This document shows positions 27,485-46,678 of a DNA stretch of 64,000 bases, one piece after another. The notes under the pieces are model-generated. The model did no database searches. It saw only the letters and a list, made by a program, of their open reading frames with translations, and was not told the origin of the DNA. The stretch comes from an uncultured Actinomycetes bacterium (GTDB lineage: Bacteria > Actinomycetota > Actinomycetes > Nanopelagicales > Nanopelagicaceae). Positions within the stretch are counted from its first letter, which is position 1. Every line of letters begins with the position of its first letter. The stretch covers positions 3,639 to 67,638 of the forward strand of contig CAIQNN010000036.1 in the NCBI GenBank assembly GCA_903873185.1. The letters are read 5' to 3'. The translations under genes and the position numbers were made by a program.

Positions 27485-27491
27485 AAAGTAT

Positions 27492-30463: not shown

Positions 30464-30485
30464 GAGGAGTAGTTTGCTAGAAAAG

Positions 30486-30503
30486 GGTGAACAACAGGTA
30501 ACC
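30486..30503 (-). promoter_or_regulatory. PHO-box-like repeats upstream of ppk1
   Basis: Minus-strand reading: GGTTACCTGTTGTTCACC (GTTACC then GTTCACC, about 10-11 nt apart), 23-40 nt upstream of ATG 30463. Confidence 0.25.
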
Positions 30504-30532
30504 AAATAGTCGTTATTGCCTGAATTGCCAGA

Positions 30533-32136: not shown

Positions 32137-33518
32137 CGTACCAATGTCCAGCGAGGGCCTGAGGGCGTATCTTCAATGAGTATTCCTAACTCTAAAATCT
32201 GATCGCGAATTGCGTCAGCTGCGGCAAAGTCTTTTCGGGCACGTGCTGCTTCTCGTTGGGCAAGTGCCAAACTAACCAAACCATCCATCGCTGAATGTGA
32301 AGAAGATTCATCTACCGCAAAGGCGGGATCAAATGGGTCGCAACCCAATATTTGAAGGGCGCCGCGAATTTGAGCGGCGGTGCTGGCAATCATGGCCAAG
32401 TCATTGGCGGTTACTGCAGTATTTCCTTGGCGAAGAAGTTCGGAAATTTCTGCCAGACCCGCAGGAACAGCAAGGTCATCATTCATCGCAGCAGCAAAGG
32501 CTGGAGAAATATCAGAACCTGGTTGCGCTCCTAAAAGTTCTTCGGCGCGAAATAGAAAGCCCTCAATACGACGAAAGTTAACTACGGTTTCTTCGAGCGC
32601 TTCAAAAGAAAATTCCATCATTGAGCGATAGTGCGCACTACCCAGATACCAACGAAGTTCGATGCCTCTGACCTTTTGAACAATTTCTGAAACTAGCAAT
32701 GAATTACCCAAAGACTTGCTCATCTTTTCACCAGAGGCGGTGACCCAAGCATTGTGCATCCAAACCTTTGCAAATCCCCAACCGGCAGATTGGGACTGCG
32801 CAATTTCATTTTCGTGATGCGGGAAAATCAAATCGAGACCGCCACCATGAATATCAAATTCTGCACCTAGGTATGCGTGGGCCATGGCGGAACATTCGAG
32901 GTGCCAACCAGGTCGACCAGGGCCCCAAGGCGTTGGCCAGGATGGATCTCCGGGCTTGGCGCCTTTCCAGAGCGCGAAGTCGCGGGGATCTTTCTTGAAA
33001 GTTTCTTCGGAATCGTCAGCTGATTGGAGATCATCCAATTTCTGATTTGAAAGCGTTAAATAGGATTTAAGCGAGCGCACTGATAGATAGACATCGCCGT
33101 TACCAGGCGCATATGCCGAGCCGTTATCAATCAAAATCTGCATGAGTTCGACCATTTGGGTGATGTGACCAGTAGCGCGCGGTTCATAAGTCGGGGACAA
33201 GACATTTAGCCGTTGATACGCCCAAGTGAATGCTTGCTCATACTTCATTGCAACTGCCCACCACGGAATATTTTCGTGAACTGCTTTATGCAAAATCTTG
33301 TCATCAATATCAGTCACGTTACGAATGAAAGTTACATCAAAGCCTTCATGCGTTAACCAGCGGCGCAAAATATCGAAGTTAACACCGCTGCGAATATGGC
33401 CAATATGTGGCGCTCCTTGAACAGTTGCACCGCAAAGATAAATGCTGGCTTTGCCGGGAAGCAGCGGAACGAATTCGGAGACTTCGCGAGTTAAAGTGTT
33501 ATAAAGATTTATTGTCAT
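32133..33518 (-). CDS. cysS: Cysteine--tRNA ligase
   Basis: 461 aa. HIGH motif (APHIGHIRSG), KMSKS present, Zn ligand context HLECSAM. Confidence 0.95.
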   Translation of the reverse strand: MTINLYNTLTREVSEFVPLLPGKASIYLCGATVQGAPHIGHIRSGVNFDILRRWLTHEGFDVTFIRNVTDIDDKILHKAVHENIPWWAVAMKYEQAFTWAYQRLNVLSPTYEPRATGHITQMVELMQILIDNGSAYAPGNGDVYLSVRSLKSYLTLSNQKLDDLQSADDSEETFKKDPRDFALWKGAKPGDPSWPTPWGPGRPGWHLECSAMAHAYLGAEFDIHGGGLDLIFPHHENEIAQSQSAGWGFAKVWMHNAWVTASGEKMSKSLGNSLLVSEIVQKVRGIELRWYLGSAHYRSMMEFSFEALEETVVNFRRIEGFLFRAEELLGAQPGSDISPAFAAAMNDDLAVPAGLAEISELLRQGNTAVTANDLAMIASTAAQIRGALQILGCDPFDPAFAVDESSSHSAMDGLVSLALAQREAARARKDFAAADAIRDQILELGILIEDTPSGPRWTLVR

Positions 33519-33991
33519 AACTTGGTCACCAATGCGCTGGCCATCACGAAAATTCCTTCGCCGCGTCCAGTAAAACCAAGACCATCAGTTGTCGTTGCTG
33601 CAATCGAAACGGGCGCACCCAGCGCTTCGGTAAGAATGGCTTGTGCTTCAGCTCGCCGCGGTCCAATTTTTGGTTCCACTCCAACGATCTGCAGCGCAAC
33701 GTTATTAATTGAAAAATTATTTTCGGCAACAAATTTTCGCAAGTGCTCCAGCATCTTTACACCTGATGCGCCGGCCCATTCCGGCCGATCAACCCCAAAG
33801 AGCTCACCGATATCGCCCAACTGGCAGGCAGATAGGACGGCATCACAGAGCGCATGGACTGCAGCGTCGCCATCGGAATGTCCGACCAAGACCCTAGCTT
33901 CTGGCCAAATTAGGCCAGCCAGATGGCAGGGCCCGCTCTGCCCGTATTGGTGGGCATCAATTCCGACGCCAGTTCGATGGTTATCGATCAA
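33515..33991 (-). CDS. ispF: 2-C-methyl-D-erythritol 2,4-cyclodiphosphate synthase
   Basis: 158 aa. GVGIDAHQY and GHSDGDAAVHAL. The TTG start (33991..33989) overlaps the ptsH stop (TTGA). Confidence 0.92.
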   Translation of the reverse strand: MIDNHRTGVGIDAHQYGQSGPCHLAGLIWPEARVLVGHSDGDAAVHALCDAVLSACQLGDIGELFGVDRPEWAGASGVKMLEHLRKFVAENNFSINNVALQIVGVEPKIGPRRAEAQAILTEALGAPVSIAATTTDGLGFTGRGEGIFVMASALVTKL

Positions 33992-34266
33992 TGATCAACG
34001 CTTTCCACGATTACTTTGAGCGCAGCGGCAACTGAATCTTCTTCTGGACCGTCTACTTGAACGACGATCTGGTCGCCGAACTTAACTCCAAGGGTCATCA
34101 CGCGCAGCACGCTGGCGCCATCGACCGCGGCGGATAGCTCCCCGCTCTCAGAAACCTTAGCCAAACTCACCTTGCAGCCTGAGCTTTTGGCGCTGGCAGC
34201 AAAAAGAGCGGCTGGGCGCGCATGGAGTCCTACGGCGGCGGCAACGGCAGTTCGAAATTCTTTCAT
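33988..34266 (-). CDS. ptsH: Phosphocarrier protein HPr
   Basis: 92 aa. Active-site His context VGLHARPAA. Confidence 0.88.
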   Translation of the reverse strand: MKEFRTAVAAAVGLHARPAALFAASAKSSGCKVSLAKVSESGELSAAVDGASVLRVMTLGVKFGDQIVVQVDGPEEDSVAAALKVIVESVDH

Positions 34267-34347
34267 GGGTAAATCGTATCTGTAACGAAAGTAGTGTTTA
34301 ATGTGAACATCTATTCAAGCACTTGCACGAATGTGAAAGTAGGGAAA

Positions 34348-35349
34348 ATGGTCGCACAGTCCTTATTGATGGGTCATCCGCTCTCTTCGCCGGATCATGC
34401 CCGCCATGCCTTGCTATATATGTATCGTATTCGCAAATTCGAAGAAGCAGTAGAAGATCTATTCGGACGCGGCATGATGCACGGCACAATGCATTTATCG
34501 ATTGGGCAAGAAGCAGGTCCTACTGGAATGTGTTTGGCACTTCGTTTGGAAGATCAAATTACCTCCACCCACCGCGGACATGGCCATTGCATTGCAAAAG
34601 GCGCTGACCTAACGCGAATGATGGCGGAATTATTGGGAAAGAAGATCGGTTATTGCGGTGGCCGTGGCGGCTCAATGCACATTGCCGACGCTGAAACCGG
34701 AAACCTGGGTGCTAATGGGGTGGTTGGTGGCGGTATCCCAATCGCGGTTGGCGCAGCGCTAGCTTCAAAAATGCAACATAAGGGCACAGTGGCGGTCTCC
34801 TTCTTTGGCGATGGCGCTATGAATGAAGGTGCCTTCCATGAAGCTGCGAACTTGGCTGCCATTTGGAAACTGCCCGTAATTCTCTTTTGCGAAAATAATC
34901 ATTACGGAATGAGCTCTTCGACCGAAAAGGCATTTGCAATTGATCGCTTGGCTGATCGTGGCCTCGGCTACGGAATTCCTGGTGTCACCGTGGATGGCAA
35001 TGACGTCGTTGCCGTTTATGAAGCCTCTGAAGCTGCAGTTGCCCGCGCACGAAATGGCGAGGGTCCAACTTTGATTGAAGCAATTACTTATCGTTGGAAG
35101 GGACATTCGCGCTCGGATAAGAATTTGTATCGATCTAAGGAAGAGATTGACGAATGGAAAGATTTAGATCCAATCCCGAAATTCATTCATCGCGTTCTGG
35201 AAGCGAATCTTTTGCGTCAGGATGAAATTGATGCAATCCAAAAGCAAGCGACCGATCAGATTATTGAAGCGGTTAACAATGCTGCCGCAGCTGAGTCGGC
35301 CGAACCTTCGGGATTGCTCGAGGCAGTATTTAAGGCGGTAAGCGCATGA
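34348..35349 (+). CDS. acoA: TPP-dependent acetoin-dehydrogenase-type E1 alpha subunit
   Basis: Start set at ATG 34348; the track's GTG at 34294 is less likely. AcoA-type motifs [22 protein letters not shown] and the TPP motif [19 protein letters not shown]. Confidence 0.85.
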
Positions 35350-36344
35350 GCGATCGTATGTTGACCATGGCCGAAGCTCTGCGCGAAGCAATGGGTATCG
35401 CGATGGAGGAACGACCAGAAGTGTTCATCCTTGGCGAAGATATTGGAATTTACGGCGGCGCATTTGGCGTTACCGGCGATCTTTACCATCGCTTCTCGCC
35501 GCTTCGGGTACTAGATACCCCAATTTCAGAATTAGGAATTGTTGGTGCTGCTGTTGGCGCAGCGCTCTCAGGTATGCGTCCCATAGTCGAAATTCAGTTC
35601 TCGGACTTCACGGCACAGGCAATGGATCAGATTGCAAACCAAGCCGCGAAGATTCACTTCATGCTTGGCGGGGCGTTGCATGTTCCCCTAGTTCTTCGCA
35701 CCCCACAAGGTTCCGGAACTGGCGCTGCTGCTCAACATTCGCAAAACTTAGAAACTTGGTTTGCCAACGTTCCTGGGTTAAAAGTGGTTGTTCCATCTAA
35801 CCCGGCTGATGCAAAGGGACTGCTTCTCTCTGCGATTGATGATCCGAATCCGGTTATCTTCCTGGAACACAAATTGCTCTACAAGATTCCTGGTCGTGAT
35901 CCAGTTCCGGAAGGCGCCATCCGAATTCCGCTCGGAGTTTCCAAAGTTGTTCGCACCGGAAAAGATCTCACTTTGGTTGCAACCGGAATTATGGTTAACA
36001 AGGCTTTCGAAGTTACCGAAAAGTTGGAAGCAGAAGGAATTTCAATCACGTTGATTGATCCGCGAACGATTTCGCCTTTGGATATGTCACCGATTCTTGA
36101 GTCGGTCGAAAAGACTGGTCGCCTTCTTGTAGTTCAAGAGGGTCCATCTCATGGTGGCTTCATCAACGAGGTCATTGCCCGCGTAAGCGAGAGTTCCAGT
36201 TTTGGTTCCCTCATTGCCCCAATAAAACGACTAGCGGGGATGAACATTCCAATTCCATATGCGCCACAACTAGAGAAGGCCGCCGTTCCGCAGGTAGCAG
36301 ATATTGAAGTTGCGGCCCGCAATCTAGTTAAGGAATGGCGATGA
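35346..36344 (+). CDS. acoB: Acetoin-dehydrogenase-type E1 beta subunit
   Basis: 332 aa with an ATGA overlap onto E1 alpha. Transketolase-like pyrimidine-binding and C-terminal domains ([16 protein letters not shown]). Confidence 0.85.
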
Positions 36345-37429
36345 GTTTCCGCTATCCAGTAGTCATGCCGAAGATGAGCATGACTATGGAGACCGGGGAA
36401 CTAATTCTCTATCACGTTAAACCTGGCGACCGGGTTAGCTCCGGCGATGTGCTCTTTGAAGTTATGACTGACAAGATCGATATGGAGGTTGAGGCTCCGA
36501 CTGATGGCGTCATCGAACAATTAATCGGGGAGATCGGCATCGATATTCCAATCGGTACCCCGGTTTTAATTATGCAGACTGATACCGAAGTCATGGCTTT
36601 TGATTTTGGCGGCGAAGCGCCAACCATCCCGGCTCCACCAGAGGCGATCGTGGAACCAGTTGTTCTTCCAGAGCCCGTAATAGTTCCAGAGCCAGTTGTT
36701 GTTCCCGAACCCGTAATAGTTCCAGAGCCAGTTCGAGCTGAAGTCGGCGTCAAAGCGGTACCAAAGGCTCGTATTGTGGCCGCCCAGAAGGGGATCGACC
36801 TGCAATCGGTTGTAGCGACCGGTCCAGATAACACCATTATGTTGGCTGATGTAACACAAATCCGACCATCGGATGAAATTCAGCGGCGCCAGAGCGCAAA
36901 TAAAGCGCTGATTGCAAAAGGCTTGGAAATGACGCGGTTAATTCCTCAAAGTTCGTTCTCGCGTACTGTCTCCACTTCGGTCGATACCGCAGCTTTGCTT
37001 GCCGCATGGGCAAGTGTCTTGCGTTCGCGCCCCGAGCTAAATATTTCTCCTAAAGATGGCAGCGAACTTTCCTTCGTGGGTGTAGCCGTAATTATCGAAT
37101 CAAAATATGGGAGCGCGCTGCCCGTATTTAAGGATCCGGATTTACTTGGCGCCCTTGAACTTTCGGAATTGGTTTCAACTACAACCAGCGCAGCTGAAAA
37201 TGGAAAAGTTCCACTTTCCATGTTGAGCGGCGCGACCACGATAGTCTTTGATCTGCGTCGCTATCACATGAGCGCCACCACGCCACTTCTATTCCCAAAT
37301 CAGCTGACCTCGATAACTGTTGGCGAAAATATTGATGGCACGCAAATCATTTCGCTGACAATTGATCTGCGTTATTGTGACTTTTATGATGGCGCACTTT
37401 TGCTCGACCACCTTATTTCCGTACTCTAA
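36341..37429 (+). CDS. Lipoyl-domain E2-like protein with a degenerate acyltransferase domain
   Basis: Lipoyl-Lys motif [12 protein letters not shown], a PEPV-repeat linker and a PSBD-like segment [16 protein letters not shown]. The C-terminal domain is short, and the canonical DHRxxDG reads [10 protein letters not shown] (His to Leu). ATG 36341 gives an ATGA overlap; ATG 36335 is the alternative. Confidence 0.75.
36668..36739 (+). repeat. Imperfect 2 x 36 nt tandem repeat in the E2 linker ([12 protein letters not shown] / [12 protein letters not shown])
   Basis: ccagagcccgtaatagttccagagccagttgttgtt followed by cccgaacccgtaatagttccagagccagttcgagct. Confidence 0.85.
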
Positions 37430-37444
37430 CGAAAAGAGATTTGC

Positions 37445-39139
37445 GTGATCGCTCTTAATGGTGTTGCCGCAAGCTCTGGTGCGGCGCTGGGACAATTCTT
37501 TCTGCTGACCACTGAAATACCAGCAACCTCCCCTGCACCATCATCGCTAACTCCTGACGAAGAAAAACGATCTCTGACTGCCGCTATTGAATATGTCGGC
37601 GCCGATCTATCCGAGCGAGCAGAGCGTTCAACTGGCGAACTTCGCGACATTTTGTTAGCGGTCAGCGAAATTGCAACTGACCCAGCGCTGATCGAAGAAG
37701 CTCACACTTTTATCGATCAAGGCCACACCGCCAGTTTTTCGATCTCGCAGGCAACCAATATCTTCAAAGAACTCTTGGAATCATCCGGTGGTTATCTGGC
37801 CGAGCGTGTAAGCGACGTCGCCAATATCTGCGATCGCATTCTCTGCCGAATCGCGGGCGTGGAGTATCCAGAAATTCCTCACTTCCAACAGCCAACCATC
37901 TTGATCGCTCGTGATCTCTCGCCAGCCGACACCACTGATCTGCAATCAGAACAGATCCTGGCAATAGTCACAGAGGGCGGTGGACCAACGAGCCATACTG
38001 CGATTATCGCCAGATCTCGCAGCATTCCGGCAGTTGTTGCTTGCCCTGGAATCGTGGAATATGCCAAATCCCATTACGGGCAACTGCTCGCAGTCGAAGC
38101 GACAACGGGCGAAGTTATCTTCGATCCACCAACTGAAATTCAAAGTCGAATCATCGCCAAGATCGAGCGAATTCGAAAACGAAAAGAGCAACTGGTCACC
38201 CGCACTCCCTTTGGCTACCAAACGGTCGATGGCCGGACAATCCCGATCTATGCAAATATCGGTCGAGTTGCAGATACCAAAGTTGCAATTGAAGCGGGCG
38301 CTGATGGTGTTGGGCTGCTTCGAACCGAACTTCTATATTTGGATCGCGCGACCGCGCCTTCACTCGATGAACAAATTGAAATTTATACCCAACTCTTCCA
38401 ACCATTCGCAAGCCAAAAAGTTGTGATTCGAACTCTGGATGCCGGCGCTGATAAGCCAATGGCATTTATCAATTTCGATGATGAACCAAACCCAGCACTT
38501 GGAGTTCGCGGCTACCGAACCATCCACGAGCACGAAGATCTCATGCGCGTTCAGCTTCAAGCAATTGCGACCGCAATCAAAAATACTGGAACCGATGTAT
38601 GGGTGATGGCCCCCATGATCACGCTTCCAGAAGAGGCCCAAAATTTTGTTGACCTTGCACGAAGCTTCGGAATCAAAACTGTCGGCGTAATGATTGAAGT
38701 GCCTGCGGCGATTTTTCACGCCGATGAGATAACTAAAATCTGCGATTTTGTTTCGATTGGCACCAATGATTTAGGACAGTATCTCCACGCCGCTGATCGC
38801 GAGTCAGCACCACTGGCAGGATTTAACGATCCATGGCAACCGGCATTGCTCCGAGCCGTTCATTTGGTAGCCCAAGCCGGACTTCGCAACAACTGTCCAG
38901 TCGGTGTGTGTGGCGAAGCCGCTTCAGATGCCGCGCTTGCAGCCGTTCTGGTGGGACTTGGAGTCTCCAGCCTCTCATGCAGCGTTTCGACCTTACGCGA
39001 CGTGGCAGCTGGCGTAACGGCCTTAAGTTTTTCCGATCTTCAATTGGCGGCGGTCGCTGCGCTTGGTGCGCCCACTTCGCAAACTGCTAAAAATTTGGCG
39101 AGGGAGCATCTTCTTGCCCTCGAAGAGTTAGGTTTATAA
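37445..39139 (+). CDS. ptsI: PTS enzyme I (PEP-protein phosphotransferase)
   Basis: 564 aa with a GTG start 15 nt after the E2-like stop. Phospho-His motif GGPTSHTAIIARS and PEP-utilizer motif SIGTNDLGQY. Confidence 0.92.
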   Translation: MIALNGVAASSGAALGQFFLLTTEIPATSPAPSSLTPDEEKRSLTAAIEYVGADLSERAERSTGELRDILLAVSEIATDPALIEEAHTFIDQGHTASFSISQATNIFKELLESSGGYLAERVSDVANICDRILCRIAGVEYPEIPHFQQPTILIARDLSPADTTDLQSEQILAIVTEGGGPTSHTAIIARSRSIPAVVACPGIVEYAKSHYGQLLAVEATTGEVIFDPPTEIQSRIIAKIERIRKRKEQLVTRTPFGYQTVDGRTIPIYANIGRVADTKVAIEAGADGVGLLRTELLYLDRATAPSLDEQIEIYTQLFQPFASQKVVIRTLDAGADKPMAFINFDDEPNPALGVRGYRTIHEHEDLMRVQLQAIATAIKNTGTDVWVMAPMITLPEEAQNFVDLARSFGIKTVGVMIEVPAAIFHADEITKICDFVSIGTNDLGQYLHAADRESAPLAGFNDPWQPALLRAVHLVAQAGLRNNCPVGVCGEAASDAALAAVLVGLGVSSLSCSVSTLRDVAAGVTALSFSDLQLAAVAALGAPTSQTAKNLAREHLLALEELGL

Positions 39140-39254
39140 GAAGTTACTAATCGGTATCTAATTCTTAAGATTTTTCTCAAATAGTGGCGAAATATCCTTG
39201 AAACAATATGTTGCTTGCACCACACTTAGCGAAATGTTCAATGACTGAACGGAT

Positions 39255-40229
39255 GTGACGATTTTGAAGCAACGCGAAACGGAGCTCATCCTTCGCGCTG
39301 CCAGGCTCTATTACGAGGAGCATCAATCGCAAGACCAAGTCGCCTCCCTCATGGGAACCTCGAGATCGAACATTTCCCGCATGCTCTCCGATGCCAAGCG
39401 CCTGGGATACGTTGAAATTCGAGTCGTAGCCCCTATTACCCGCAACGAGGCGCTTTCATCGCAACTTCAGAATCTCCTGGGAGTCAAAGAGGTCCAGGTA
39501 ATAACCACGGATAAGAACGAACTTACCTTCAGCGCCGTCGGCCGCGCCGCAGCCACGACGCTCGTTAATAGCCTTAGTAACAATCAAACCATCGCGATCT
39601 CATGGGGCCGAGGTCTAGAAGCCACTGTCATAAATGTACGCAATGAAAGCTTTTCCGGCTTAAAGGTGACGCAGCTGATGGGCTCCCTCTCTTCGGTCAC
39701 CACCTCGGCCAGCGCCGAGGAAGTCGGTCGCAGGCTTGCTAAGAATCTCAATGCTCAGTTCATTCCTTTCCTGGCACCCGTCGTTGTCAGCAACTCCAAG
39801 ACCCGAGATTCCATGCTCGAAGAAGAGAGCATCGCAAAAACCCTAAAAATTGCCCGCAGTGCCGATATCGCACTTATCGGAATCGGATCTCGGACTTCTT
39901 CCTCTTCCGAAATGGTCTTTAGTGAATTTAAATTATCTAAGGCCGAAAAAGATGCGATCTATGACCGCTACGCCGGCGATGTAGCTGCCCGTTTTTACGA
40001 CATCAAGGGCCAAGCCCTAAATTCTAAAATGGATAAATGCGTACTTGGCTTAACGCTTGAAGAGATGTCGGCAATTCCAAAGGTGATCGCAGTTGCTTCT
40101 GGTGGCGAGAAAGTTCAAGGTGTAATCGGCGCAGCTCGTTCGGGAATGATCGATACGTTGATTGTTGACCTGGTCTGCGCAAATTCCATCATCAAATCCC
40201 TAGCCCCATCGGCGGTGAAGAGCGCGTGA
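39255..40229 (+). CDS. SorC/DeoR-type sugar-binding transcriptional regulator
   Basis: 324 aa. N-terminal HTH (QSQDQVASLMGTSRSNISRMLSDAKRLG) and a SorC-type sugar-phosphate-binding domain. Confidence 0.85.
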   Translation: MTILKQRETELILRAARLYYEEHQSQDQVASLMGTSRSNISRMLSDAKRLGYVEIRVVAPITRNEALSSQLQNLLGVKEVQVITTDKNELTFSAVGRAAATTLVNSLSNNQTIAISWGRGLEATVINVRNESFSGLKVTQLMGSLSSVTTSASAEEVGRRLAKNLNAQFIPFLAPVVVSNSKTRDSMLEEESIAKTLKIARSADIALIGIGSRTSSSSEMVFSEFKLSKAEKDAIYDRYAGDVAARFYDIKGQALNSKMDKCVLGLTLEEMSAIPKVIAVASGGEKVQGVIGAARSGMIDTLIVDLVCANSIIKSLAPSAVKSA

Positions 40230-40627
40230 CTTACTTAACCAAACTCCTTTTAGTTATCGCTGCAATGTGGGCATCGCAATTAGCGCTGGCTTACTTGCAA
40301 GCAAAGAAATTCCAAGCTGATCTCAGGTCGCTAAGACAATACGGAACCGTCGCCATTGGTATGGGTGGACGGCGTTATCGCGGTGGGCGGGCATTCGTTG
40401 CTCTGGCTGCCGATGAAAATGGCATGATCGTGACGGGATTGGTCCTTCGTGGGCTAACCGTTTTCGCGAAATCAAAGCCGCTCAATACCTACAACGGATT
40501 CTCACTGACCGACATAATCTCGGGTACCCGAGTTGTACTGGGTGAACCAAAGAAAGTGCAAGAGGCCACACAAATGGCAGCTCAGCACATTCAGGATCAT
40601 CTAGCACGGGTCGAGCAGGGAGAGTAA
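40226..40627 (+). CDS. gutM: Glucitol operon activator GutM-family protein
   Basis: 133 aa. One N-terminal TM, then ...LAYLQAKKFQ...GTVAIGMGG...RAFVALAADENG...GLTVFAK, matching the GutM family pattern. GTGA overlap with the SorC gene. Confidence 0.75.
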   Translation: MTYLTKLLLVIAAMWASQLALAYLQAKKFQADLRSLRQYGTVAIGMGGRRYRGGRAFVALAADENGMIVTGLVLRGLTVFAKSKPLNTYNGFSLTDIISGTRVVLGEPKKVQEATQMAAQHIQDHLARVEQGE

Positions 40628-40655
40628 TGATCGAGAAATTCCAGATGGATCGATC

Positions 40656-40671
40656 ATTGATGTACATCAAT
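40656..40671. promoter_or_regulatory. Perfect 16-bp palindrome ATTGATGTACATCAAT (candidate operator)
   Basis: Lies in the 73-nt gap between gutM and srlA, 30 nt upstream of the AGGAGG-GTG start of srlA. Confidence 0.35.
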
Positions 40672-40700
40672 CATGTCTTAACTTACTTAGGAGGTGTCTA

Positions 40701-41300
40701 GTGTTCCTGCATCAACTGATCACGCTATCAGCTGTAACAGTGGACAAACCAACGGGTGTTCTTGGCGCGTTGGCAACTGGCGCTGAAGACTTCATCAAGG
40801 TCTTCAACAAAGGTGGAACGGTTCTTCTCAGTCTTATGGGTGGAATCCTTCCAACGTTGATCGTTCTTCTGACTGCAGTAAATGCACTCGTAAGAATTAT
40901 CGGCGCAGAACGAATCGAAAATCTAGGCAAGGCTGCATCACGTCCTGGTCTCCAGTGGTATCCAGTTCGTTACATCATCCTTCCTTTTGTTGCCGTATTC
41001 GTTCTAACAAACCCAATGGCATACACAATGGGTCGCTTCCTTCCAGAACGCTTCAAGCCTGCGTTCTACGACTCCGCAGTTTCGTTTGTGCACCCAATCC
41101 TGGGAATTTTCCCACACGCTAACCCAGGTGAACTTTTCGTATACCTCGGTATCGCAACAGGTATCAAGGAACTCGGCTTCGGCTTGGGTGACTTGGCTAT
41201 CCGTTACCTACTTGTAGGTCTTGTTGTCATCTTCATCCGCGGAATCGTTACTGAACGAATCACCGCGCGAATGATGGCTAAAGCCGAAAGGAGTGCATAA
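40701..41300 (+). CDS. srlA: PTS glucitol/sorbitol-family EIIC component (SrlA-like)
   Basis: 199 aa. Collinear with E. coli SrlA as I recall it (FNKGG..., GRFLPERFKPAFYD, FPHANPGELFVYLGIA). Confidence 0.88.
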   Translation: MFLHQLITLSAVTVDKPTGVLGALATGAEDFIKVFNKGGTVLLSLMGGILPTLIVLLTAVNALVRIIGAERIENLGKAASRPGLQWYPVRYIILPFVAVFVLTNPMAYTMGRFLPERFKPAFYDSAVSFVHPILGIFPHANPGELFVYLGIATGIKELGFGLGDLAIRYLLVGLVVIFIRGIVTERITARMMAKAERSA

Positions 41301-41302
41301 CC

Positions 41303-41851
41303 ATGGAAGGTTTCACAAACTTAATCGTACGGATCGGCCGTGGCGTCGGTGGAGTAGTAGGAACTCTCTACCAGGCAGGTCGTGATTCGGTAGATACCGT
41401 AATCCGTAACGTCATTCCATTTATGGCGTTTATCTCCTTCATCATCGGTTTGATTCTGACAACCGGTATTGGTAACTGGATCGCTAAGGGACTAAAGGGC
41501 TCTGCCTCTTCACTTCCTGGCTTGCTACTTATCTCTATCGTCTGTGCAATTCCAATCCTGTCTCCTTTGCTTGGACCAGGTGCTGTTATTGCTCAGATCG
41601 TCGGAACCTTGCTCGGTGTTGAAATTGGTAAGGGAAATATCCCTGCGCAATACTCACTACCAGCACTATTCGCTATCAACCCACAGGTTGGTTGCGACTT
41701 CATTCCAGTAGGTCTAGCTCTCGGTGAAGCCGAGCCTGAGACGGTCGAAATCGGTGTTCCCGCGGTTCTGTTCTCCCGCGTTATCACCGGTCCATTGTCC
41801 GTAGTCATCGCATACTTCGCCAGCTTCGGCCTGTACCACACCAGTAAGTAA
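41303..41851 (+). CDS. srlE: PTS Gut-family EIIC' membrane domain (C-terminal half of SrlE as a separate gene)
   Basis: 182 aa. Matches the SrlE C-terminal part (LYQAGRDSVDTVIRNVIPFMAF..., LLGPGAVIAQIVG, LPALFAINPQVGCDFIPVGL). Confidence 0.85.
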   Translation: MEGFTNLIVRIGRGVGGVVGTLYQAGRDSVDTVIRNVIPFMAFISFIIGLILTTGIGNWIAKGLKGSASSLPGLLLISIVCAIPILSPLLGPGAVIAQIVGTLLGVEIGKGNIPAQYSLPALFAINPQVGCDFIPVGLALGEAEPETVEIGVPAVLFSRVITGPLSVVIAYFASFGLYHTSK

Positions 41852-41861
41852 GCACGATCGA

Positions 41862-41893
41862 AACCAAGGTGCGGGGCAACTCGCACCTTGGTT
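41862..41893 (+). other. Perfect 12-bp-stem hairpin inside the PTS operon
   Basis: aaccaaggtgcg-gggcaact-cgcaccttggtt, 11 nt after the EIIC' stop and with no following U-run. A 137-nt AT-rich gap precedes the EIIB gene. Confidence 0.6.
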
Positions 41894-41988
41894 ATCGCAA
41901 GGCAGTACGTTGAAACTCACATCCAAATTTAATTTTTACAACATATTCTTGGTTATCAAGATTCTTAACTAGTTCAAGGAGAACAAAA

Positions 41989-42360
41989 ATGGGCGAATAC
42001 AAGAGCGTCACTATTTCAGCCGGACGAGGCGGTTGGGGCGGTCCACTAACCATCACACCTACCGATGAAAAGCCGTACATCTATTCGGTAACCGGTGGCG
42101 GTATTCACGCTGTTGCGCAACGCATCGCCGACATTACCGGTGGAATTCCTTTCGATGGTTTCAAGAGCAGCGTGCCCTTCGACAAGATTGCCGTTGCCGT
42201 TATCGACTGTGGTGGAACTGCTCGAGTTGGCGTTTATCCAATGAAGAAAGTTTTAACCGTTGATATTCATGCGACCAGCCCTGCCGGACCGCTCGCCAAC
42301 TTTATTACCAAAGAACTCTTTGTCTCTGGCGTAAAAGCGGATGACATAAAGGAAGGTTAA
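41989..42360 (+). CDS. srlE: PTS Gut-family EIIB domain (N-terminal half of SrlE as a separate gene)
   Basis: 123 aa. GRGGWGGPLTITP and the phospho-Cys context VAVIDCGGTARVGVYP (E. coli: VAVIDCGGTLRCGIYP). Confidence 0.88.
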   Translation: MGEYKSVTISAGRGGWGGPLTITPTDEKPYIYSVTGGGIHAVAQRIADITGGIPFDGFKSSVPFDKIAVAVIDCGGTARVGVYPMKKVLTVDIHATSPAGPLANFITKELFVSGVKADDIKEG

Positions 42361-42363
42361 GTT

Positions 42364-42732
42364 TTGTCTAATCTTGTCTATGCAACAACCATTACAGCAG
42401 TTGGAGAACTTGTTCCCGATTTTCGGGAACAAGGAGTCTTGGTCTTCTTTGGTGAAAATGCACCCATTGAGCTTCACGAATTTTCAATCCTTCACAAACC
42501 TGATGTCGAAGTGCGAGCACCACTAACCGGTGACACCATTCGATTATCAAATAATGCATTTAACGTTTTAGCTGTGGGATCGGTCGCCAGCGACAACTTG
42601 CTCAACCTTGGCCACCTGGATCTAAAAGCAAATGGTCTTCCCGAGGCAGAGCTGCCTGGAGATGTAAACGTAGAAGCAGGCGAATTACCGATGGTCAAAG
42701 TAGGCGACCGTCTTGAAGTTTTTTCCGCCTAA
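42364..42732 (+). CDS. srlB: PTS glucitol/sorbitol-family EIIA component
   Basis: 122 aa with a TTG start. AVGSVASDNLLNLGHLDLK parallels E. coli SrlB AVGSVAEDNLRELGHVTLR (phospho-His). Confidence 0.85.
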   Translation: MSNLVYATTITAVGELVPDFREQGVLVFFGENAPIELHEFSILHKPDVEVRAPLTGDTIRLSNNAFNVLAVGSVASDNLLNLGHLDLKANGLPEAELPGDVNVEAGELPMVKVGDRLEVFSA

Positions 42733-42771
42733 TCGTTTTTCAAGCAGGACAACAGAAAAGAGATAAAAGAA

Positions 42772-44064
42772 GTGGCATATTCCTCGAAACTCAAAGCGCA
42801 CGCTGAAAAGCTGGGCCGCGATGTAAAAATTGCATTAGTGGGCGCTGGCCAGATGGGCCATGGTTTTGGCTGCCAAGTAGATCGCATGCCTGGTTTAACC
42901 GTCTCGCTAGTAATAGATATCGATCCGGCTCGAATTATGGCGCTTTACGCTGACTTAGGTGAAAACAATCCAGTAATCAGCACCGACCAAAATGAAATTG
43001 CGGCAGCGATTTCTGCCGGCAAGCGAGTCGGAACCACCACCTCTGCATTCCTATCAGAACTGCCAATCGACTTTGTTGTCGAAGCAACTGGTGTCCCAGA
43101 AATTGGCGCCCAAATCACTTACTCCTGCTTAAAAGCCAAGATGGATGTCGCCGTATTGAATGTCGAAATGGATGTAACCATTGGGCCGCTGCTTCATAAA
43201 ATTGCGGTCGAAAATGGCGTGGTTTACACCGTCTGCCATGGCGATGAGCCAATTGAAGCCAAAGTGCTAGTTGACTTTGCGCGCGATCTAAATTTTGAAG
43301 TTATCGCCGCCGGCAAAGGCAAGAACAATCCATTTGAACCGCTCAGCAACCCTGATTCAGTTCGGGCAACTGCAACTGCAAAAAACATGAACCCAAAGAT
43401 GCTTTGTTCTTTCACTGATGGCTCAAAGACCATGACCGAGATGGTGGCGCTTTCAAATACCACCGGCATTCCGCTTTCAAAGCGTGGAATGAACGGCCCA
43501 GCTGCCACTGTTAAAACCCTTCAAAATGTCTTTGCTCCCAAAGAAGATGGTGGAATTTTGGATAAGAAGGGTGTCATCGATTATTGCACTGGCGATGTTG
43601 CCCCTGGTGTATTCGTCATCGTAAAGAGCGATTCCAAATACATCAATCATGAGATGAGCTACCTAGGTATGGGCCCTGGCCCTTACTTCGCGCTCTACCG
43701 TCCGTATCACTTAGCTTCGGTTGAAGCTCCACTATCGGTCGCCCGAGCTGTTGTAGACCGTGAGTCATCGCTATTCGCTACTCACTTAATCTCTGAAGTT
43801 GTAGCAATGACTAAAAAGGATTTAAAAGCTGGCGACAAGATCGACGGCATTGGTGGCTACACCGTTCGTGGTTACGCCGACATCGCCGCAGATGCCCGTC
43901 GCGATAATTTGGTACCGATTGGGCTGATTCAAAATGCGATTGTCAAAAACGATGTTCCAGTTGGAACACTTCTGACTTACGATGATGTAGAACTCGATGC
44001 AACTAGCTTGATAGTGAAACTGCGCAAAGAACAAGACGATATGGGCCTCACCTACGCTAGCTAA
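42772..44064 (+). CDS. NAD(P)-dependent oxidoreductase, homoserine-dehydrogenase-like Rossmann domain plus C-terminal SAF domain (COG4091-type)
   Basis: 430 aa with a GTG start. KIALVGAGQMGHG dinucleotide fold and a SAF-like C-terminal region (KKDLKAGDKIDGIGGYTVRG...VPVGTLLTYDDV). Occupies the operon position of SrlD. Confidence 0.7.
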   Translation: MAYSSKLKAHAEKLGRDVKIALVGAGQMGHGFGCQVDRMPGLTVSLVIDIDPARIMALYADLGENNPVISTDQNEIAAAISAGKRVGTTTSAFLSELPIDFVVEATGVPEIGAQITYSCLKAKMDVAVLNVEMDVTIGPLLHKIAVENGVVYTVCHGDEPIEAKVLVDFARDLNFEVIAAGKGKNNPFEPLSNPDSVRATATAKNMNPKMLCSFTDGSKTMTEMVALSNTTGIPLSKRGMNGPAATVKTLQNVFAPKEDGGILDKKGVIDYCTGDVAPGVFVIVKSDSKYINHEMSYLGMGPGPYFALYRPYHLASVEAPLSVARAVVDRESSLFATHLISEVVAMTKKDLKAGDKIDGIGGYTVRGYADIAADARRDNLVPIGLIQNAIVKNDVPVGTLLTYDDVELDATSLIVKLRKEQDDMGLTYAS

Positions 44065-44369
44065 TCGGTTTCTTCTTTAGGATCTGGAATATGGCTAGTT
44101 AGTCCAAGCTCTTCCATTAAACGTCGCTGGCGTTTGGTTAGCGGGTCGCGAACCTTCTTGGGTTTTGCGGCCCGTTCGCTTTGATTAACTGAAACTTCGT
44201 CGTGAACAACTGGCCGATTCCCTCGCAGCCCAAGCTCTTCCATCAATTCCTCTTGGGCTGGCGTAAATAGCCCCTGAGAGCTCCGCTTTGCAGCATGTTT
44301 TGCCTTTATCTTTGCCGCTCGCTCTTCTGGAGTGTGCTGGGCAAAGCCAAATTTGCTCCGAAGTGACAT
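44061..44369 (-). CDS. Small highly charged protein with two LMEELGL repeats
   Basis: 102 aa. TPAQEELMEELGLRG and TKRQRRLMEELGLTS. Lys/Arg/Glu-rich with no TM segment. Confidence 0.55.
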   Translation of the reverse strand: MSLRSKFGFAQHTPEERAAKIKAKHAAKRSSQGLFTPAQEELMEELGLRGNRPVVHDEVSVNQSERAAKPKKVRDPLTKRQRRLMEELGLTSHIPDPKEETD

Positions 44370-44395
44370 AACGGCAAGTCTGACACAATTGCCCC

Positions 44396-45097
44396 ATGAA
44401 ATCCGAAATGCGCGTTGCGGTAGTGGTTCTCGCCGCCGGCTCGGGTTCGCGTTTTGGACATGTAACTAACAAGGTCTGGTTGCCTCTGAGCGGACGACGA
44501 ATCATCTCCCGATCCATCGCAAACGCCGCCAGGAGCTTCCGTGGCTGCCGAACCATTTTGGTGATCAGTCCAGATGATTCCGAACTCGCCCGTGCCACCT
44601 TGGAGCGCGAAGTTTCTAACATCACCGTTGAAATAGTTCTCGGCGGGGCAACTAGGCACGACTCGGAATACCGAGCGCTTCAATACTTGGCGCCGCAAAT
44701 CGAAGCTGAGGAAATCAATGTGGTCCTGATTCACGACGGTGCTCGGCCTTTGGCGACCAGTTCGCTCTTCAAGAAGATTGCCGAGGCGGCACATCGTCAC
44801 GGAGGTGCACTTCCTGCAATTCGAGTCTCCGCAAAAGAGATGGATATTCAAAGCAACGAAGTGGTCGTGCGGGTCCAAACCCCACAGGCCTTTTCGGCGC
44901 AGGAACTGCTAACGGCGTATCGTCAGGCTTTCATAGATAACTTTCATGGCACCGATACCGCCGCCTGTATGGAAAAATATTTTCCAGATATTCATACAAT
45001 GGCAGTCTCAGGTGAAGTTGCCAATGTGAAAATTACCTATCCCCAAGATTTAGCGATTGCCGAACATGTTTTAGAGAAGCGGAGGTACAAAGATTGA
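44396..45097 (+). CDS. ispD: 2-C-methyl-D-erythritol 4-phosphate cytidylyltransferase
   Basis: 233 aa. VLAAGSGSRFG, VVLIHDGARPL, VQTPQAF, NVKITYPQDL. ATG 44408 is an alternative start. Confidence 0.9.
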   Translation: MKSEMRVAVVVLAAGSGSRFGHVTNKVWLPLSGRRIISRSIANAARSFRGCRTILVISPDDSELARATLEREVSNITVEIVLGGATRHDSEYRALQYLAPQIEAEEINVVLIHDGARPLATSSLFKKIAEAAHRHGGALPAIRVSAKEMDIQSNEVVVRVQTPQAFSAQELLTAYRQAFIDNFHGTDTAACMEKYFPDIHTMAVSGEVANVKITYPQDLAIAEHVLEKRRYKD

Positions 45098-45405
45098 GCA
45101 ACGAAGAGCTCGATGTGCCACTTCACTGCACGCAATGTCAACAAGAGACAGTGCATCACCTTCGCTATGCCGGCCGACTCTTGGTATCCACAACCTGTTC
45201 AATCTGCAAAACGCAGGTAAAGCATGAAGATCATGATTTGCGTCTCCATTACACAAAAGATCTACAGCATCGAATTGCTACGAAACCTTGGCGGCTTTGG
45301 AAGCGATTTTGGCGGGCACCAAAGGCGGTCTTCTGGTCCTTTCCAAAGAAAGCGCTAGGGCAACCATTCAAGATTTGGCGCGAGTATCGCAATATTGGGC
45401 GCTAG
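45094..45405 (+). CDS. Small zinc-ribbon protein with a basic Trp-rich tail
   Basis: 103 aa. CTQC...CSIC pairs. The TTG start overlaps the ispD TGA (TTGA). Confidence 0.5.
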   Translation: MSNEELDVPLHCTQCQQETVHHLRYAGRLLVSTTCSICKTQVKHEDHDLRLHYTKDLQHRIATKPWRLWKRFWRAPKAVFWSFPKKALGQPFKIWREYRNIGR

Positions 45406-45421
45406 TTATTAAGATCAGACT

Positions 45422-46678
45422 GTGCCTAATGAGAATTTCAAACGCCAGTTTCCGCGCCCTAAAGATCTAACTCCACTTCTTCAATTTCAACTTCCCACAA
45501 TTCACCGAAAGCGGCGCCGGCTGGAAAAGGCGCTTACGATCTGGGACCTTCGAGAGATTGCAAAACGGCGAACCCCAAAGGGACCATTTGATTACACCGA
45601 TGGTGCCGCCGAGACTGAAGTTAGTTTGGAACGTTCACGTCAGGCATTTCTAGATATTGAATTCCAGCCCAATATTTTGCAAGACGTTTCCAAGATCGAT
45701 ATGTCGCGTAAAACGTTGGGGGAAACCTTCGCCTTACCTTTTGGCATTGCTCCGACGGGTTTTACTCGAATGATGCACTCCGAAGGTGAACGTGCTGGCG
45801 CTCGCGCTGCCGAAAAATTTGGCATTCCATTCACACTTTCAACACTTGGAACAACAACAATCGAAGATGTAGTTGCAGCCGCTCCCAATGGCACCAATTG
45901 GTTCCAGTTATATATGTGGAAAGACCGCGAAGGCAGCATGGCATTAGTTGAACGTGCGCAAAAGATGGGCGTTAAGAATTTAATGTTGACGGTTGACGTT
46001 CCAGCCTCCGGTTACCGAATGCGCGATTACCGAAACGGCTTGACTGTGCCACCGCGATTAAATGCATCCACGATCGCCAACGCGCTACCCCGCCCGGAAT
46101 GGATTTGGAACTTTCTCACCACCCCGCCGATTAGTTTTGCCTCGTTATCAAACTGGCCCGGCACCGTTGGTGAGTTATTGGATTACATGTTCGACCCAAC
46201 CATGACATTCGAAGATTTGAAATGGGTGCGCAAGCAGTGGAAGGGTACTTTGACCATCAAGGGTATTCAAACGCTCGAAGATGCAAAGCGCTGCGCCAAA
46301 TATGGGGTAGATGCAGTGTTGCTTTCAAATCACGGTGGCCGCCAGCTTGATCGTGCGCCAGTTCCATTGCATTTGTTAGGAGCAGTTCGTAAGGAGCTAA
46401 AGAGCGACCTCGAAGTTCACTTGGACACCGGCATCATGCACGGCGCCGATGTTTTGGCGGCTATCGCTCATGGTGCGCAGTACACCTACGTTGGCCGCGC
46501 TTATCTCTATGGCTTAATGGCTGGTGGTCAAGAAGGCGTAGAACGTGCACTTGAGATCATGAAGACTCAAATGGCTCGTTCCATGAAATTGTTGGGTGTC
46601 AGTTCATTGGATGAATTAGAACCCAAGCACGCAAAATTCTTGGCTACCCATCAAGGTCTTGGATCACTGCCGAAGTAA
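45422..46678 (+). CDS. FMN-dependent alpha-hydroxy-acid oxidase/dehydrogenase (LldD-like)
   Basis: 418 aa with a GTG start. Signature SNHGGRQLD and a TIM-barrel FMN dehydrogenase layout. Confidence 0.85.
   Translation: MPNENFKRQFPRPKDLTPLLQFQLPTIHRKRRRLEKALTIWDLREIAKRRTPKGPFDYTDGAAETEVSLERSRQAFLDIEFQPNILQDVSKIDMSRKTLGETFALPFGIAPTGFTRMMHSEGERAGARAAEKFGIPFTLSTLGTTTIEDVVAAAPNGTNWFQLYMWKDREGSMALVERAQKMGVKNLMLTVDVPASGYRMRDYRNGLTVPPRLNASTIANALPRPEWIWNFLTTPPISFASLSNWPGTVGELLDYMFDPTMTFEDLKWVRKQWKGTLTIKGIQTLEDAKRCAKYGVDAVLLSNHGGRQLDRAPVPLHLLGAVRKELKSDLEVHLDTGIMHGADVLAAIAHGAQYTYVGRAYLYGLMAGGQEGVERALEIMKTQMARSMKLLGVSSLDELEPKHAKFLATHQGLGSLPK

Follow-up and report, generated by a model that had tools for sequence, protein, structure and literature searches.

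Type II DXP (1-deoxy-D-xylulose 5-phosphate) reductoisomerases (DXR-II), to which the DXR-like (DRL) enzyme of Brucella belongs, convert DXP to MEP (2-C-methyl-D-erythritol 4-phosphate); eleven members of the clade make MEP in complementation tests, whereas members of the paralogous clades DLO1 and DLO2 do not (PMC3847144). DXR-II also occurs in bacteria without an MEP pathway, e.g. Finegoldia and Anaerococcus, a puzzle noted in the same survey (PMC3847144), and a 2026 review reports no defining pattern of its distribution (PMC13001223). From a different direction, the sorbitol phosphotransferase system (PTS) of Salmonella has been reported to take up 2-C-methyl-D-erythritol (Testa 2004, in the form cited in PMC3994034). 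Here we analyse a window of 64,000 nucleotides, part of contig CAIQNN010000036.1 (GCA_903873185.1) of a freshwater acI actinobacterium (Nanopelagicales), in which a DRL gene stands directly after the genes of a Gut-family PTS and is followed by an intact ispD (Table 1). We hold the chances to be about even that this locus consists of an MEP core, namely the DRL gene and the intact ispD, joined to a mobile module of Gut-PTS and E1 genes with methylerythritol as its best candidate substrate.

An earlier note, made from the DNA letters alone, had described most of this gene string and had drawn on the Salmonella report; the paper in question exists (Testa 2004, again as cited in PMC3994034). Our gene calls, which combined an open reading frame (ORF) listing with profile searches (Pfam and NCBIfam), recover every gene that the note named, at or near where it had placed them and with strong family matches; what it had overlooked are a gene for HPr, two small ORFs and a degenerate second ispD. 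Its proposal that the 430-residue oxidoreductase belongs to the DRL/DXR-II family is supported. The protein matches the Brucella abortus DRL structures 3UPY and 3UPL over its full length (phmmer E 2e-91, query residues 7-424, ~47% identity), carries the PF21135 domain and keeps K191, K193 and T229 (Brucella numbering), the residues that anchor fosmidomycin or substrate (Carretero-Paulet 2013, PMC3847144); NCBIfam holds no model that matches it. The positions that set DXR-II apart include G121, H250, R320 and V351 (PMC3847144). When we compared 77 acI copies of the protein, G121, D167, E168, K191, K193, T229 and R320 were invariant in all 77, and the window's copy also keeps Y322. Among 1.84 billion cluster representatives searched, the closest relative outside acI is 55% identical, and the next ones, 38-47% identical, carry the DXR-II signature; weaker matches differ at positions 168, 191/193 and 229. 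A neighbour-joining tree of the DRL proteins (calculated without bootstrap and without labelled DLO1 or DLO2 sequences) places the acI clade inside the group that contains Brucella DRL, and the lower-scoring representatives, with Q168, N191 or T193 and a residue other than threonine at 229, stand apart.

A scan for acI relatives of the DRL protein, with one genome taken per species, gave 80 loci whose oxidoreductases are 63-98% identical. Nearly all of the records name an uncultured freshwater member of the Actinomycetota, for the most part Ca. Nanopelagicaceae or Planktophila (acI), and the set includes complete genomes of 1.33-1.43 Mb. Gene neighbourhoods were mapped by tblastn, with which divergent genes can be missed. 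Conservation in relatives, on which the earlier note had made its proposal depend, is found: ispD comes after the DRL gene in all loci that extend far enough to reveal it, and the whole arrangement is present in dozens of related genomes, so that it is neither a chance juxtaposition nor an assembly artefact. Around this pair the layouts differ. About 42 species share the layout of the window, in which the genes for the PTS and E1/E2 lie upstream of DRL; some 22 are compact (ppk-GDSL-rlmB-cysS-ispF on one side, DRL-ispD-relic ispD-carD on the other), without PTS and without E1/E2; and in about 15 the DRL-ispD pair lies in another context. The gene ispF is syntenic and divergently adjacent in acI layouts A and B. 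In L050 a genuine dxs gene (TIGR00204, 606 bits against a cut-off of 466) lies between ispF and DRL, giving ispF and then dxs-DRL-ispD, and L058 shows the same dxs signal upstream of DRL in the tblastn map.

Because DRL-ispD is invariant while the PTS and E1/E2 genes are absent from about half of the acI species, and because dxs lies directly upstream of DRL in two of them, we consider, from this gene order, that DRL-ispD is the conserved MEP core, which behaves like a housekeeping MEP operon, and that DRL most likely supplies the DXR activity of the lineage; it may well be the only DXR that acI possesses. The position of the gene, in the slot that srlD occupies in E. coli, had invited the view that it merely stands in for SrlD. 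That view is not sustained in acI, where the PTS and E1 genes are dispensable, with dxs in their place in two genomes, and DRL-ispD is not. In the DRL tree the root of acI has PTS-bearing genomes on either side, and the PTS is carried by the outgroup L166 as well; secondary loss is therefore the best reading of the PTS-less layouts.

The earlier note had taken the bracketing of the string by ispF and ispD as a functional tie to the MEP pathway. It reflects instead an insertion into the ancestral actinobacterial operon carD-ispD-ispF-cysS-rlmB, whose own ispD has decayed; we take this operon to be of the kind found, e.g., in Mycobacterium tuberculosis (Rv3583c-Rv3579c). IspF scores above the cut-off of its equivalog model. 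The plus-strand IspD, which had been called canonical, has an NCBIfam score (TIGR00453, 151 bits) below the trusted cut-off of 181.3, but it carries the CTP loop (LAAGSGSRFG) and the other usual motifs (IHDGARP, TPQAF). Its best solved relatives are 4KT7 (89 bits) and 5DDT (86 bits), with the mycobacterial IspD at 54 bits. By contrast, the resident copy beside carD is closest among solved structures to mycobacterial IspD (2XWN, E 7e-6), and it retains VHDSNRP and has VTSATALAKLG in place of the N-terminal GxGxR CTP loop. The inverted second ispD appears to have taken over from the resident one. The relic is kept as an ORF in nearly all of the 80 acI relatives, and for this reason it probably has some remaining or new role.

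The presence of an IspD-family gene beside a polyol transporter admits another explanation, in which a TarI-like enzyme activates the polyol phosphate delivered by the PTS for an envelope polymer and DRL is the matching reductase. Such genes stand beside PTS-DRL not only in acI but in L098, L108, L114 and L161; the family includes ribitol-5-phosphate cytidylyltransferases, and the window's IspD reaches 78 bits with the corresponding model NF001183. Furthermore, CDP-glucitol synthesis is known in Campylobacter (PMC10918830). Even so, we consider a CDP-polyol route very improbable: the protein scores about twice as high as IspD (151 bits) as it does as a ribitol enzyme, it is the sole intact ispD at a locus whose ancestral copy is dead, it is retained together with DRL, ispF and dxs in layouts without the PTS, and no glycosyl- or polyol-phosphate transferase genes were found nearby in the window. 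Given the ratio of the two scores and the decayed state of the resident ispD, we did not adopt a TarI-type ribitol-5-phosphate enzyme as the principal interpretation of the plus-strand IspD.

Upstream of DRL and on the same strand, the window encodes a complete Gut-family EII, as had been reported: EIIC, EIIBC, EIIA and the activator GutM are all matched (E 2e-21 to 4.5e-71). With the HPr gene, which at its stop shares 4 bases with the start of ispF, the PTS itself is complete, and the phospho-transfer motifs of HPr (GLHARPA), EI (TSHTAIIAR) and EIIB (DCGGT) are intact. Within acI, HPr is found only in loci that carry the PTS, apart from a remnant in L079. SrlE is split and its parts are permuted, the C-part preceding the N-part, as they are in L082, L098, L111, L128 and L166. 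A short-chain dehydrogenase/reductase (SDR) acting on sorbitol-6-phosphate was not found at the locus.

The E1 genes preceding the PTS genes encode a heteromeric thiamine diphosphate (ThDP)-dependent E1 of the 2-oxoacid/acetoin dehydrogenase family. Its α subunit scores 356.2 bits with the pyruvate dehydrogenase (PDH) E1α equivalog model TIGR03182, below the cut-off of 393.85; on this ground, and on its absence from half of the acI species, a housekeeping PDH was rejected as its identity. Motifs of E1α including GGSMHIAD we take to be of AcoA character. The E1 of acetoin dehydrogenase, AcoAB, cleaves methyl-ketols. A lipoyl E2-like protein is present, as earlier described, but its acyltransferase core is degenerate (PF00198 only 22.5 bits, below cut-off) and the catalytic histidine is lost: the motif DHRxxDG reads DLRYCDF in the window, and the histidine is absent (DL[RN]) in all 30 acI copies examined, whereas the E2 of modules outside acI keeps DHR or is of AcoC type. 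The acI protein resembles in this the inactive E3-binding protein of mammalian PDH. No E3 gene was found in the window's cluster, nor were butanediol or acetoin genes found nearby in the window.

We then have to ask whether these genes accompany DRL elsewhere. Contexts outside acI were drawn from three sources, namely the contigs of the cluster representatives, a metagenome scan and annotated plasmid records of cultured strains. The scan, with an alignment of non-acI DXR-II proteins as query, returned 80 loci (L087-L166) of 30-70% GC, with DRL proteins 38-48% identical to that of the window, except for L166 (62%); for the high-GC loci L108 and L163, gene content was taken from tblastn maps. 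Gut-PTS genes lie directly beside DRL in 23 of these 80 loci. E1α/β genes accompany it in seven, a split transketolase in eight, an IspD-like gene in four and dxs in two, and EI or HPr in several; a Zn-dependent alcohol dehydrogenase (Zn-ADH) lies directly upstream of DRL in about 35.

Individual loci bring the resemblance closer. A metagenome-assembled genome of Eubacteriales has SorC and then Zn-ADH, a 2-hydroxyacid dehydrogenase, GutM, SrlA, SrlE_C, SrlE_N, SrlB, DRL, a class II aldolase and alcohol dehydrogenases, its order from GutM to DRL (GutM-SrlA-SrlE_C-SrlE_N-SrlB-DRL) being that of the window. In L088 the genes SorC, GutM, SrlA, SrlE, SrlB and DRL are followed by an acetamidase-family protein, E1α, E1β, a complete E2 (with DHR), E3 and a further ThDP enzyme. 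A mobilizable plasmid of Priestia aryabhattai XT37 carries IIA-IIB-IIC-GutM diverging from E1α, E1β, E2, LpdA, SorC, a major facilitator superfamily (MFS) transporter, SorC, DRL and an FGGY kinase. On a plasmid of Rhizobium sp. B230/85 the order is GutM, IIC, IIB, IIA, EI, SorC, DRL, E1α, E1β, E2, and on one of Aminobacter niigataensis DRL, E1α, E1β and an E2 annotated as AcoC are followed, ~8 kb on, by GutM, IIC, IIB, IIA and EI. Listeria monocytogenes has SorC, DRL, GutM, IIC, IIB and IIA, and Ligilactobacillus salivarius S01 has DRL, IIA, IIC, IIB, GutM, SorC, fsa and tkt, in both cases with no SDR present. The Listeria genes are presumably the lmo0542-0547 region, since they adjoin a gene of the lmo0549 family; we found nothing in the literature on the substrates of lmo0542-0547. 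A SorC-type regulator stands beside the DRL-linked Gut operon in every isolate examined, where classic sorbitol operons have GutR or SrlR.

The E1 proteins are closely related across these loci. The window's E1α is 57-63% identical to the DRL-adjacent E1α of Priestia, Rhizobium, Aminobacter and L088, all with GGSMHIAD in common, and its E1β is 55-61% identical to the module E1β of other phyla; the module E1s (55-63%) are thus closer to those of the window than are the module DRLs (40-47%). The NCBI name of the Rhizobium and Aminobacter E1α orthologues is thiamine pyrophosphate-dependent dehydrogenase E1 component subunit alpha. The neighbourhood that the earlier note had proposed to seek in relatives is found well beyond them: Gut-PTS with DRL, often with AcoAB-like E1-E2 and sometimes with an IspD-like gene, recurs in three phyla. 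The association of this ten-gene set in Actinomycetota, Bacillota and Alphaproteobacteria, in at least four orders, is a signature of selection for linkage.

Several loci among the DXR-II-type genes are of other kinds. The largest clade of DXR-II-type genes, which lacks a PTS, has the order SorC-SIS isomerase-Zn-ADH-DRL-FGGY kinase-FucI-like isomerase (L133, 654-7596; L106, 8217-12752; about 35 of the loci L087-L166), and these look like kinase-dependent operons for the catabolism of sugar alcohols. A split transketolase, or the N and C subunits of a DXS-like enzyme, overlaps the DRL start among sugar-phosphate genes in L085 (8208-11305) and L086 (936-4033), and represents a second type of ThDP enzyme that recurs beside DRL. 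In Thermaerobacter sp. (L083/L084, 6740-11308) the genes directly upstream of the DXR-II-type gene encode an MFS sugar transporter, a metallophosphatase and a HAD hydrolase; this could point to dephosphorylation of the product, e.g. to free methylerythritol. In Rhizobium sp. B230/85 (L171, 16774-21266) the module is followed, after two opposite-strand hypothetical genes, by thiC, a thiO-like gene, thiS, thiG, thiE and thiD. Thiazole synthase, ThiG, uses DXP, and this neighbouring thiamine operon could be a functional hint or a coincidence.

We compared the transporters by means of a second neighbour-joining tree, of SrlA and the membrane part of SrlE and with bootstrap, using as sorbitol references the systems of E. 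coli, Pediococcus parvulus pPP1, L. salivarius UCC118 and E. faecium (in the last three SDR-GutR-GutM-IIC-IIB-IIA); the operons of E. coli and Pediococcus are the ones that have been studied. A single split (bootstrap 92/100) holds these four SDR-linked systems and separates them from all the DRL-linked ones, and the window's transporter groups with the latter: acI transporters join L166 (100/100) and then L098, L111, L128 and L108 (94/100). In the DRL tree the acI clade, with L166 and the 55% identical representative, is nested among PTS-linked DRLs; the Zn-ADH-linked DRLs form another large clade, and Brucella DRL groups with dxs-adjacent and E1-linked high-GC loci. At the level of these sequences the transporter and DRL trees are congruent, which is the pattern of co-evolution. 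Some L. salivarius megaplasmid records, including that of S01 (L169), give at least two SrlA matches, one of them in the DRL-linked operon, and strain UCC118 carries a classic SDR-linked sorbitol operon; the DRL-linked and SDR-linked systems of this species likely have different substrates.

These results bear on the null hypothesis that the earlier note had set itself, an ordinary PTS beside an unrelated acetoin operon. In its simplest form, an unrelated PTS/acetoin island was inserted beside MEP genes once and inherited vertically. A single event could account for all the acI occurrences, the PTS and E1 genes are dispensable there (about half of the species lack them), and no tie between the genes emerges from the promoter and terminator scans. 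Yet linkage of this gene set to DRL is found in unrelated genomes and in different orders, the transporter tree is congruent with the DRL tree, and the acI DRL nests among PTS-linked DRLs. Since the linkage recurs and the DRL-linked transporters form their own clade, we give almost no credence to chance adjacency, which the recurrence largely refutes.

Taking these observations together, we propose the following history and function for the locus. An acI ancestor would have acquired a PTS-DRL module, of which DRL itself was an ancestral member, and would have come to depend on DRL and the adjoining ispD, which lie inverted inside the ancestral carD operon; DRL would then supply the DXP-to-MEP step for the whole lineage, and about half of the acI species would later have lost the transporter and E1 genes and kept DRL-ispD. 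The accessory module upstream of DRL (Gut PTS, SorC, GutM, E1α/β and the lipoyl carrier) would be horizontally mobile. Its PTS is predicted to import a polyol, for which 2-C-methyl-D-erythritol is the best candidate, and with phosphoenolpyruvate to deliver it as MEP. From there a salvage branch could lead through IspD to CDP-methylerythritol (CDP-ME), and a catabolic branch could run through DRL in reverse, from MEP and NAD(P)+ to DXP, which the E1 would cleave: DXP and lipoyl-E2 would give acetyl-dihydrolipoyl-E2 and glyceraldehyde 3-phosphate, and the acetyl group would pass to CoA. In acI, where the module's own E2 lacks the histidine and no E3 is clustered, the acetyl group would be discharged through housekeeping E2 and E3. 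We know of no such cleavage of DXP. Methylerythritol would be the most economical reading of the substrate, because with it every enzyme of the module is used, no other is needed and no carbon is lost; the scheme would also account for the occasional IspD-like neighbour. The gene set in three phyla may thus represent an undescribed pathway that feeds methylerythritol into or out of the MEP pathway. In its fuller form, a pathway whose substrate is methylerythritol or another branched or 1-deoxy polyol related to it, comprising a dedicated Gut-PTS clade, DXR-II in reverse, a 'reverse DXS' reaction by the AcoAB-like E1-E2(-E3) and optional salvage by IspD, we advance it tentatively, as something that is possible but falls short of an even chance. 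If it is true, catabolism or salvage was the original job of DXR-II, and acI co-opted a catabolic enzyme as its only DXR; the patchiness of DXR-II, its location on plasmids and its presence beside DXR-I or without an MEP pathway would then be explained.

The E1 could in principle run in the other direction, as a non-canonical DXP synthase that feeds DRL, so that the two make an alternative DXS/DXR pair; the earlier note had named this among its options. E1 and DXS are homologous ThDP enzymes (there are weak DXS profile matches), E. coli aceE mutations can rescue the loss of dxs (PMC3424233), and L050 carries dxs in the very position upstream of DRL, where L058 gives the same tblastn signal. 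We regard it as highly unlikely nevertheless, and find no support for E1 as a replacement of DXS: it always occurs with a lipoyl E2, and in Priestia and L088 with E3 also, which is the mark of an oxidative system for cleavage and not of a carboligase; the genes are accessory, lie on plasmids and share their regulation with a transporter; and acI species that lack E1 still have DRL-ispD.

A number of findings weigh against the methylerythritol scheme and the role that we assign to DRL. At position 250 the window has asparagine, and the acI copies have tyrosine (72), asparagine (4) or phenylalanine (1), where 76 of the 81 non-acI DXR-II-type proteins compared have histidine; E174, too, is replaced by valine in the window and in acI DRL, unlike in nearly all other DXR-II. 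No classical DXR-I motif (GSTGS[IVL]G or P[VI]DSEH) was found in the window and 176 loci, which at ~21 kb per genome cannot show that DXR-I is absent. The DXR reaction favours MEP, so that its reversal needs the pull of E1. The acI module looks eroded, with an E2 that lacks the catalytic histidine, no clustered E3 and losses of genes: EI is missing in six acI genomes that keep the rest of the block (L007, L015, L020, L021, L023 and L024), and L012 is without EII genes and keeps E1/E2/EI/SorC. As a separate observation, these seven genomes form, with L079, in which only HPr is left beside DRL, an erosion series of the module. Finally, the minimal operon of Listeria (SorC, DRL, GutM and EII) is exactly what one would expect of an ordinary hexitol operon whose dehydrogenase is non-orthologous, and L. 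salivarius has in addition fsa and tkt, which suit a hexose-6-phosphate product.

The last two points lead to the alternative of an ordinary hexitol operon, in which the Gut PTS imports sorbitol or another common hexitol and DRL replaces the SDR and makes fructose 6-phosphate or a similar ketose phosphate; DXR activity would be a second job that acI put to use, and E1/E2 would act downstream, e.g. on pyruvate or acetoin. DRL does occupy the dehydrogenase slot after EIIA, with no other dehydrogenase present, and Listeria has nothing beyond the minimal set. The gene fsa follows classic SDR-type sorbitol operons as well as the L. salivarius DRL-type operon, the largest DRL clade lies in generic sugar-alcohol operons (SorC-SIS-ZnADH-DRL-FGGY kinase), and the window's SrlA is 48% identical to E. 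coli SrlA as against 49-60% to DRL-linked SrlAs. We nonetheless judge a hexitol substrate rather unlikely. The DRL-linked transporters stand apart from the four SDR-linked sorbitol transporters, the two SrlA matches on one L. salivarius plasmid suggest a second Gut PTS of different substrate, and the residues that bind fosmidomycin, an analogue of DXP, are invariant. Nor does a hexitol give any reason for the repeated and order-independent linkage to AcoAB-like E1-E2 in three phyla, or to IspD-like genes.

The features of the locus are collected in Table 1. The 102-residue ORF antisense between DRL and ispD was found by tblastn in 33 acI loci, all of them with the PTS; in PTS-less loci the DRL stop overlaps the ispD start. 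The 103-residue CxxC protein gave no family match in Pfam and NCBIfam searches. Within acI it is confined to PTS-bearing loci, and homologues lie beside DRL in L098 (6576-6887), L100 (2279-2614) and L166 (4657-4923), so that it accompanies PTS-DRL modules both within acI and at three unrelated metagenomic loci. The FMN-dependent dehydrogenase, present only in the window and in its closest relative L001, is a recent addition that lies outside the module. Annotation of the 64 kb revealed no dxs, dxr, ispE, ispG or ispH in the rest of the window. A consensus scan for promoters and terminators over 33400-47000 returned sites fewer than, or no more than, those in shuffled sequence and is uninformative on operon structure, and an Rfam scan of the whole window found one tRNA (26392-26463, minus strand) and no riboswitch near the operon. 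The tRNA and the polyphosphate cluster at 26567-30505, with a Ppx/GppA phosphatase (26567-27484, plus strand), a NUDIX/histidine-phosphatase fusion (27492-28382, minus strand) and polyphosphate kinase (28379-30505, minus strand), belong to ordinary gene content.

Table 1. Genes of the DRL locus and its flanks, in window coordinates, with the profile matches or motifs on which each assignment rests
Feature	Position	Strand	Evidence or remark
rlmB	31309-32136	-	string ispF-cysS-rlmB
cysS	32133-33518	-	string ispF-cysS-rlmB
ispF (MEcPP synthase)	33515-33991	-	TIGR00151 152.2 bits (cut-off 116.45); PF02542 7.8e-48
PTS HPr	33988-34266	-	PF00381 4e-19; TIGR01003 70 bits (cut-off 48); His15 motif GLHARPA
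E1α, ThDP-dependent, AcoA-like	34294-35349	+	PF00676 3.3e-90
E1β	35346-36344	+	PF02779 3.6e-43; PF02780 2.2e-35
E2-like lipoyl carrier	36335-37429	+	lipoyl PF00364 5e-14; E3-binding PF02817 2e-7; degenerate acyltransferase core
PTS EI	37445-39139	+	TIGR01417 366 bits (cut-off 342); active-site motif GGPTSHTAIIAR
SorC-family sugar-phosphate-binding regulator	39255-40229	+	PF04198 8.9e-54
GutM operon activator	40226-40627	+	PF06923 2.4e-21
Gut-family EIIC, SrlA-type	40701-41300	+	PF03608 4.5e-71; in DRL-linked transporter clade
Gut EIIC second membrane part (SrlE C-part)	41303-41851	+	PF07663 7e-48
Gut EIIB (SrlE N-part), separate protein	41989-42360	+	PF03612 2e-49, profile positions 1-116; DCGGT cysteine motif
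Gut EIIA (SrlB)	42364-42732	+	PF03829 5.9e-29
DXR-II/DRL-type NAD(P)-dependent oxidoreductase, 430 aa	42772-44064	+	PF21135 DRL_cat 1.6e-60; SAF PF08666 7.5e-8
Conserved 102-aa ORF	44061-44369	-	basic; two LMEELGL repeats; antisense, separates DRL from ispD
IspD, intact copy	44396-45097	+	PF01128 1.3e-39, 136.7 bits, above its cut-off
103-aa CxxC...CxxC protein	45094-45405	+	directly after ispD; zinc-ribbon-like, basic aromatic-rich tail
FMN-dependent α-hydroxyacid dehydrogenase/oxidase	45422-46678	+	PF01070 9e-126
Degenerate ispD relic	46679-47353	-	PF01128 43 bits, profile positions 93-174 only
carD	47374-47856	-	PF21095 4e-37; adjoins relic ispD

The components of this locus, DXR-II, Gut PTS and acetoin-type E1, are each of known kinds, and their conserved association is not described in the literature that we searched. 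In that literature, which was partially accessible, we found neither DXR-II in Actinobacteria or as a conserved partner of ispD in acI, nor any mention of a linkage of DXR-II to Gut PTS, Zn-ADH, transketolase or E1/AcoAB-like genes; on the catabolism of methylerythritol, and on PTS or isoprenoid genes of acI, nothing relevant came up. Should our reading be right, it would give the first sign that acI, which rank among the most abundant bacteria of fresh water, make isoprenoids by way of DXR-II, which bears on the biology of fosmidomycin-type inhibitors and on genome-scale models of the lineage. The module would further offer a candidate answer to the question why bacteria that have DXR-I, or that have no MEP pathway, carry DXR-II, and a candidate enzyme for the oxidative cleavage of DXP, which as a biological reaction is not yet known. 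Plants and algae release methylerythritol and the methyltetrols, which also arise from isoprene in the atmosphere, and the pathway is a possible microbial sink for them. Culturable hosts of the module exist in Listeria, Priestia, Rhizobium and Aminobacter.

Compared with the described systems, the acI enzyme has the Rossmann, DRL_cat and SAF architecture of Brucella DRL, its K191, K193 and T229 and its linkage to MEP genes, but differs in carrying Y or N at 250 and V at 174 and in the placement of its gene after a Gut PTS; the DXR-II survey of Carretero-Paulet 2013, moreover, includes no Actinobacteria among the strains of its Table 1 (PMC3847144). With the carD operon of actinobacteria the locus shares carD, an ispD-family gene, ispF, cysS and rlmB on one strand and in ancestral order; it differs in that ~12.7 kb of opposite-strand genes part ispF from the ispD-family gene, and in that the resident ispD is without its CTP-binding loop. 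As in the classic sorbitol operons (srlAEBD-gutM-srlR of E. coli and the lactobacillus type gutFRMCBA), EIIC SrlA, EIIBC SrlE, EIIA SrlB and GutM are encoded together and a dehydrogenase gene lies directly before or after the EII genes; in the window, however, the dehydrogenase is of DRL type and not an SDR, the regulator is SorC and not SrlR or GutR, SrlE is split and permuted, and EI and HPr are encoded in the cluster. Like AcoA/AcoB/AcoC/AcoL, the module has a heterotetramer-type ThDP E1α/β with a lipoyl-bearing partner, and the E2 of the Aminobacter module is annotated by NCBI as an acetoin dehydrogenase acetyltransferase subunit. Unlike AcoABCL, it is coupled to PTS and DXR-II and not to acetoin or butanediol genes, its acI form has an E2 core that lacks the catalytic histidine and no E3 gene in the cluster, and its proposed substrate is a phosphorylated methyl-ketol, DXP. 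The sorbitol PTS of Salmonella (Testa, Cornish, Poulter 2004, cited in PMC3994034) is a functional parallel, in that a Gut PTS delivers methylerythritol as MEP to IspD and bypasses DXS and DXR; there this was a side activity seen in engineered strains, whereas here the genetic linkage of the transporter to DXR-II and ispD suggests that its role is a dedicated one.

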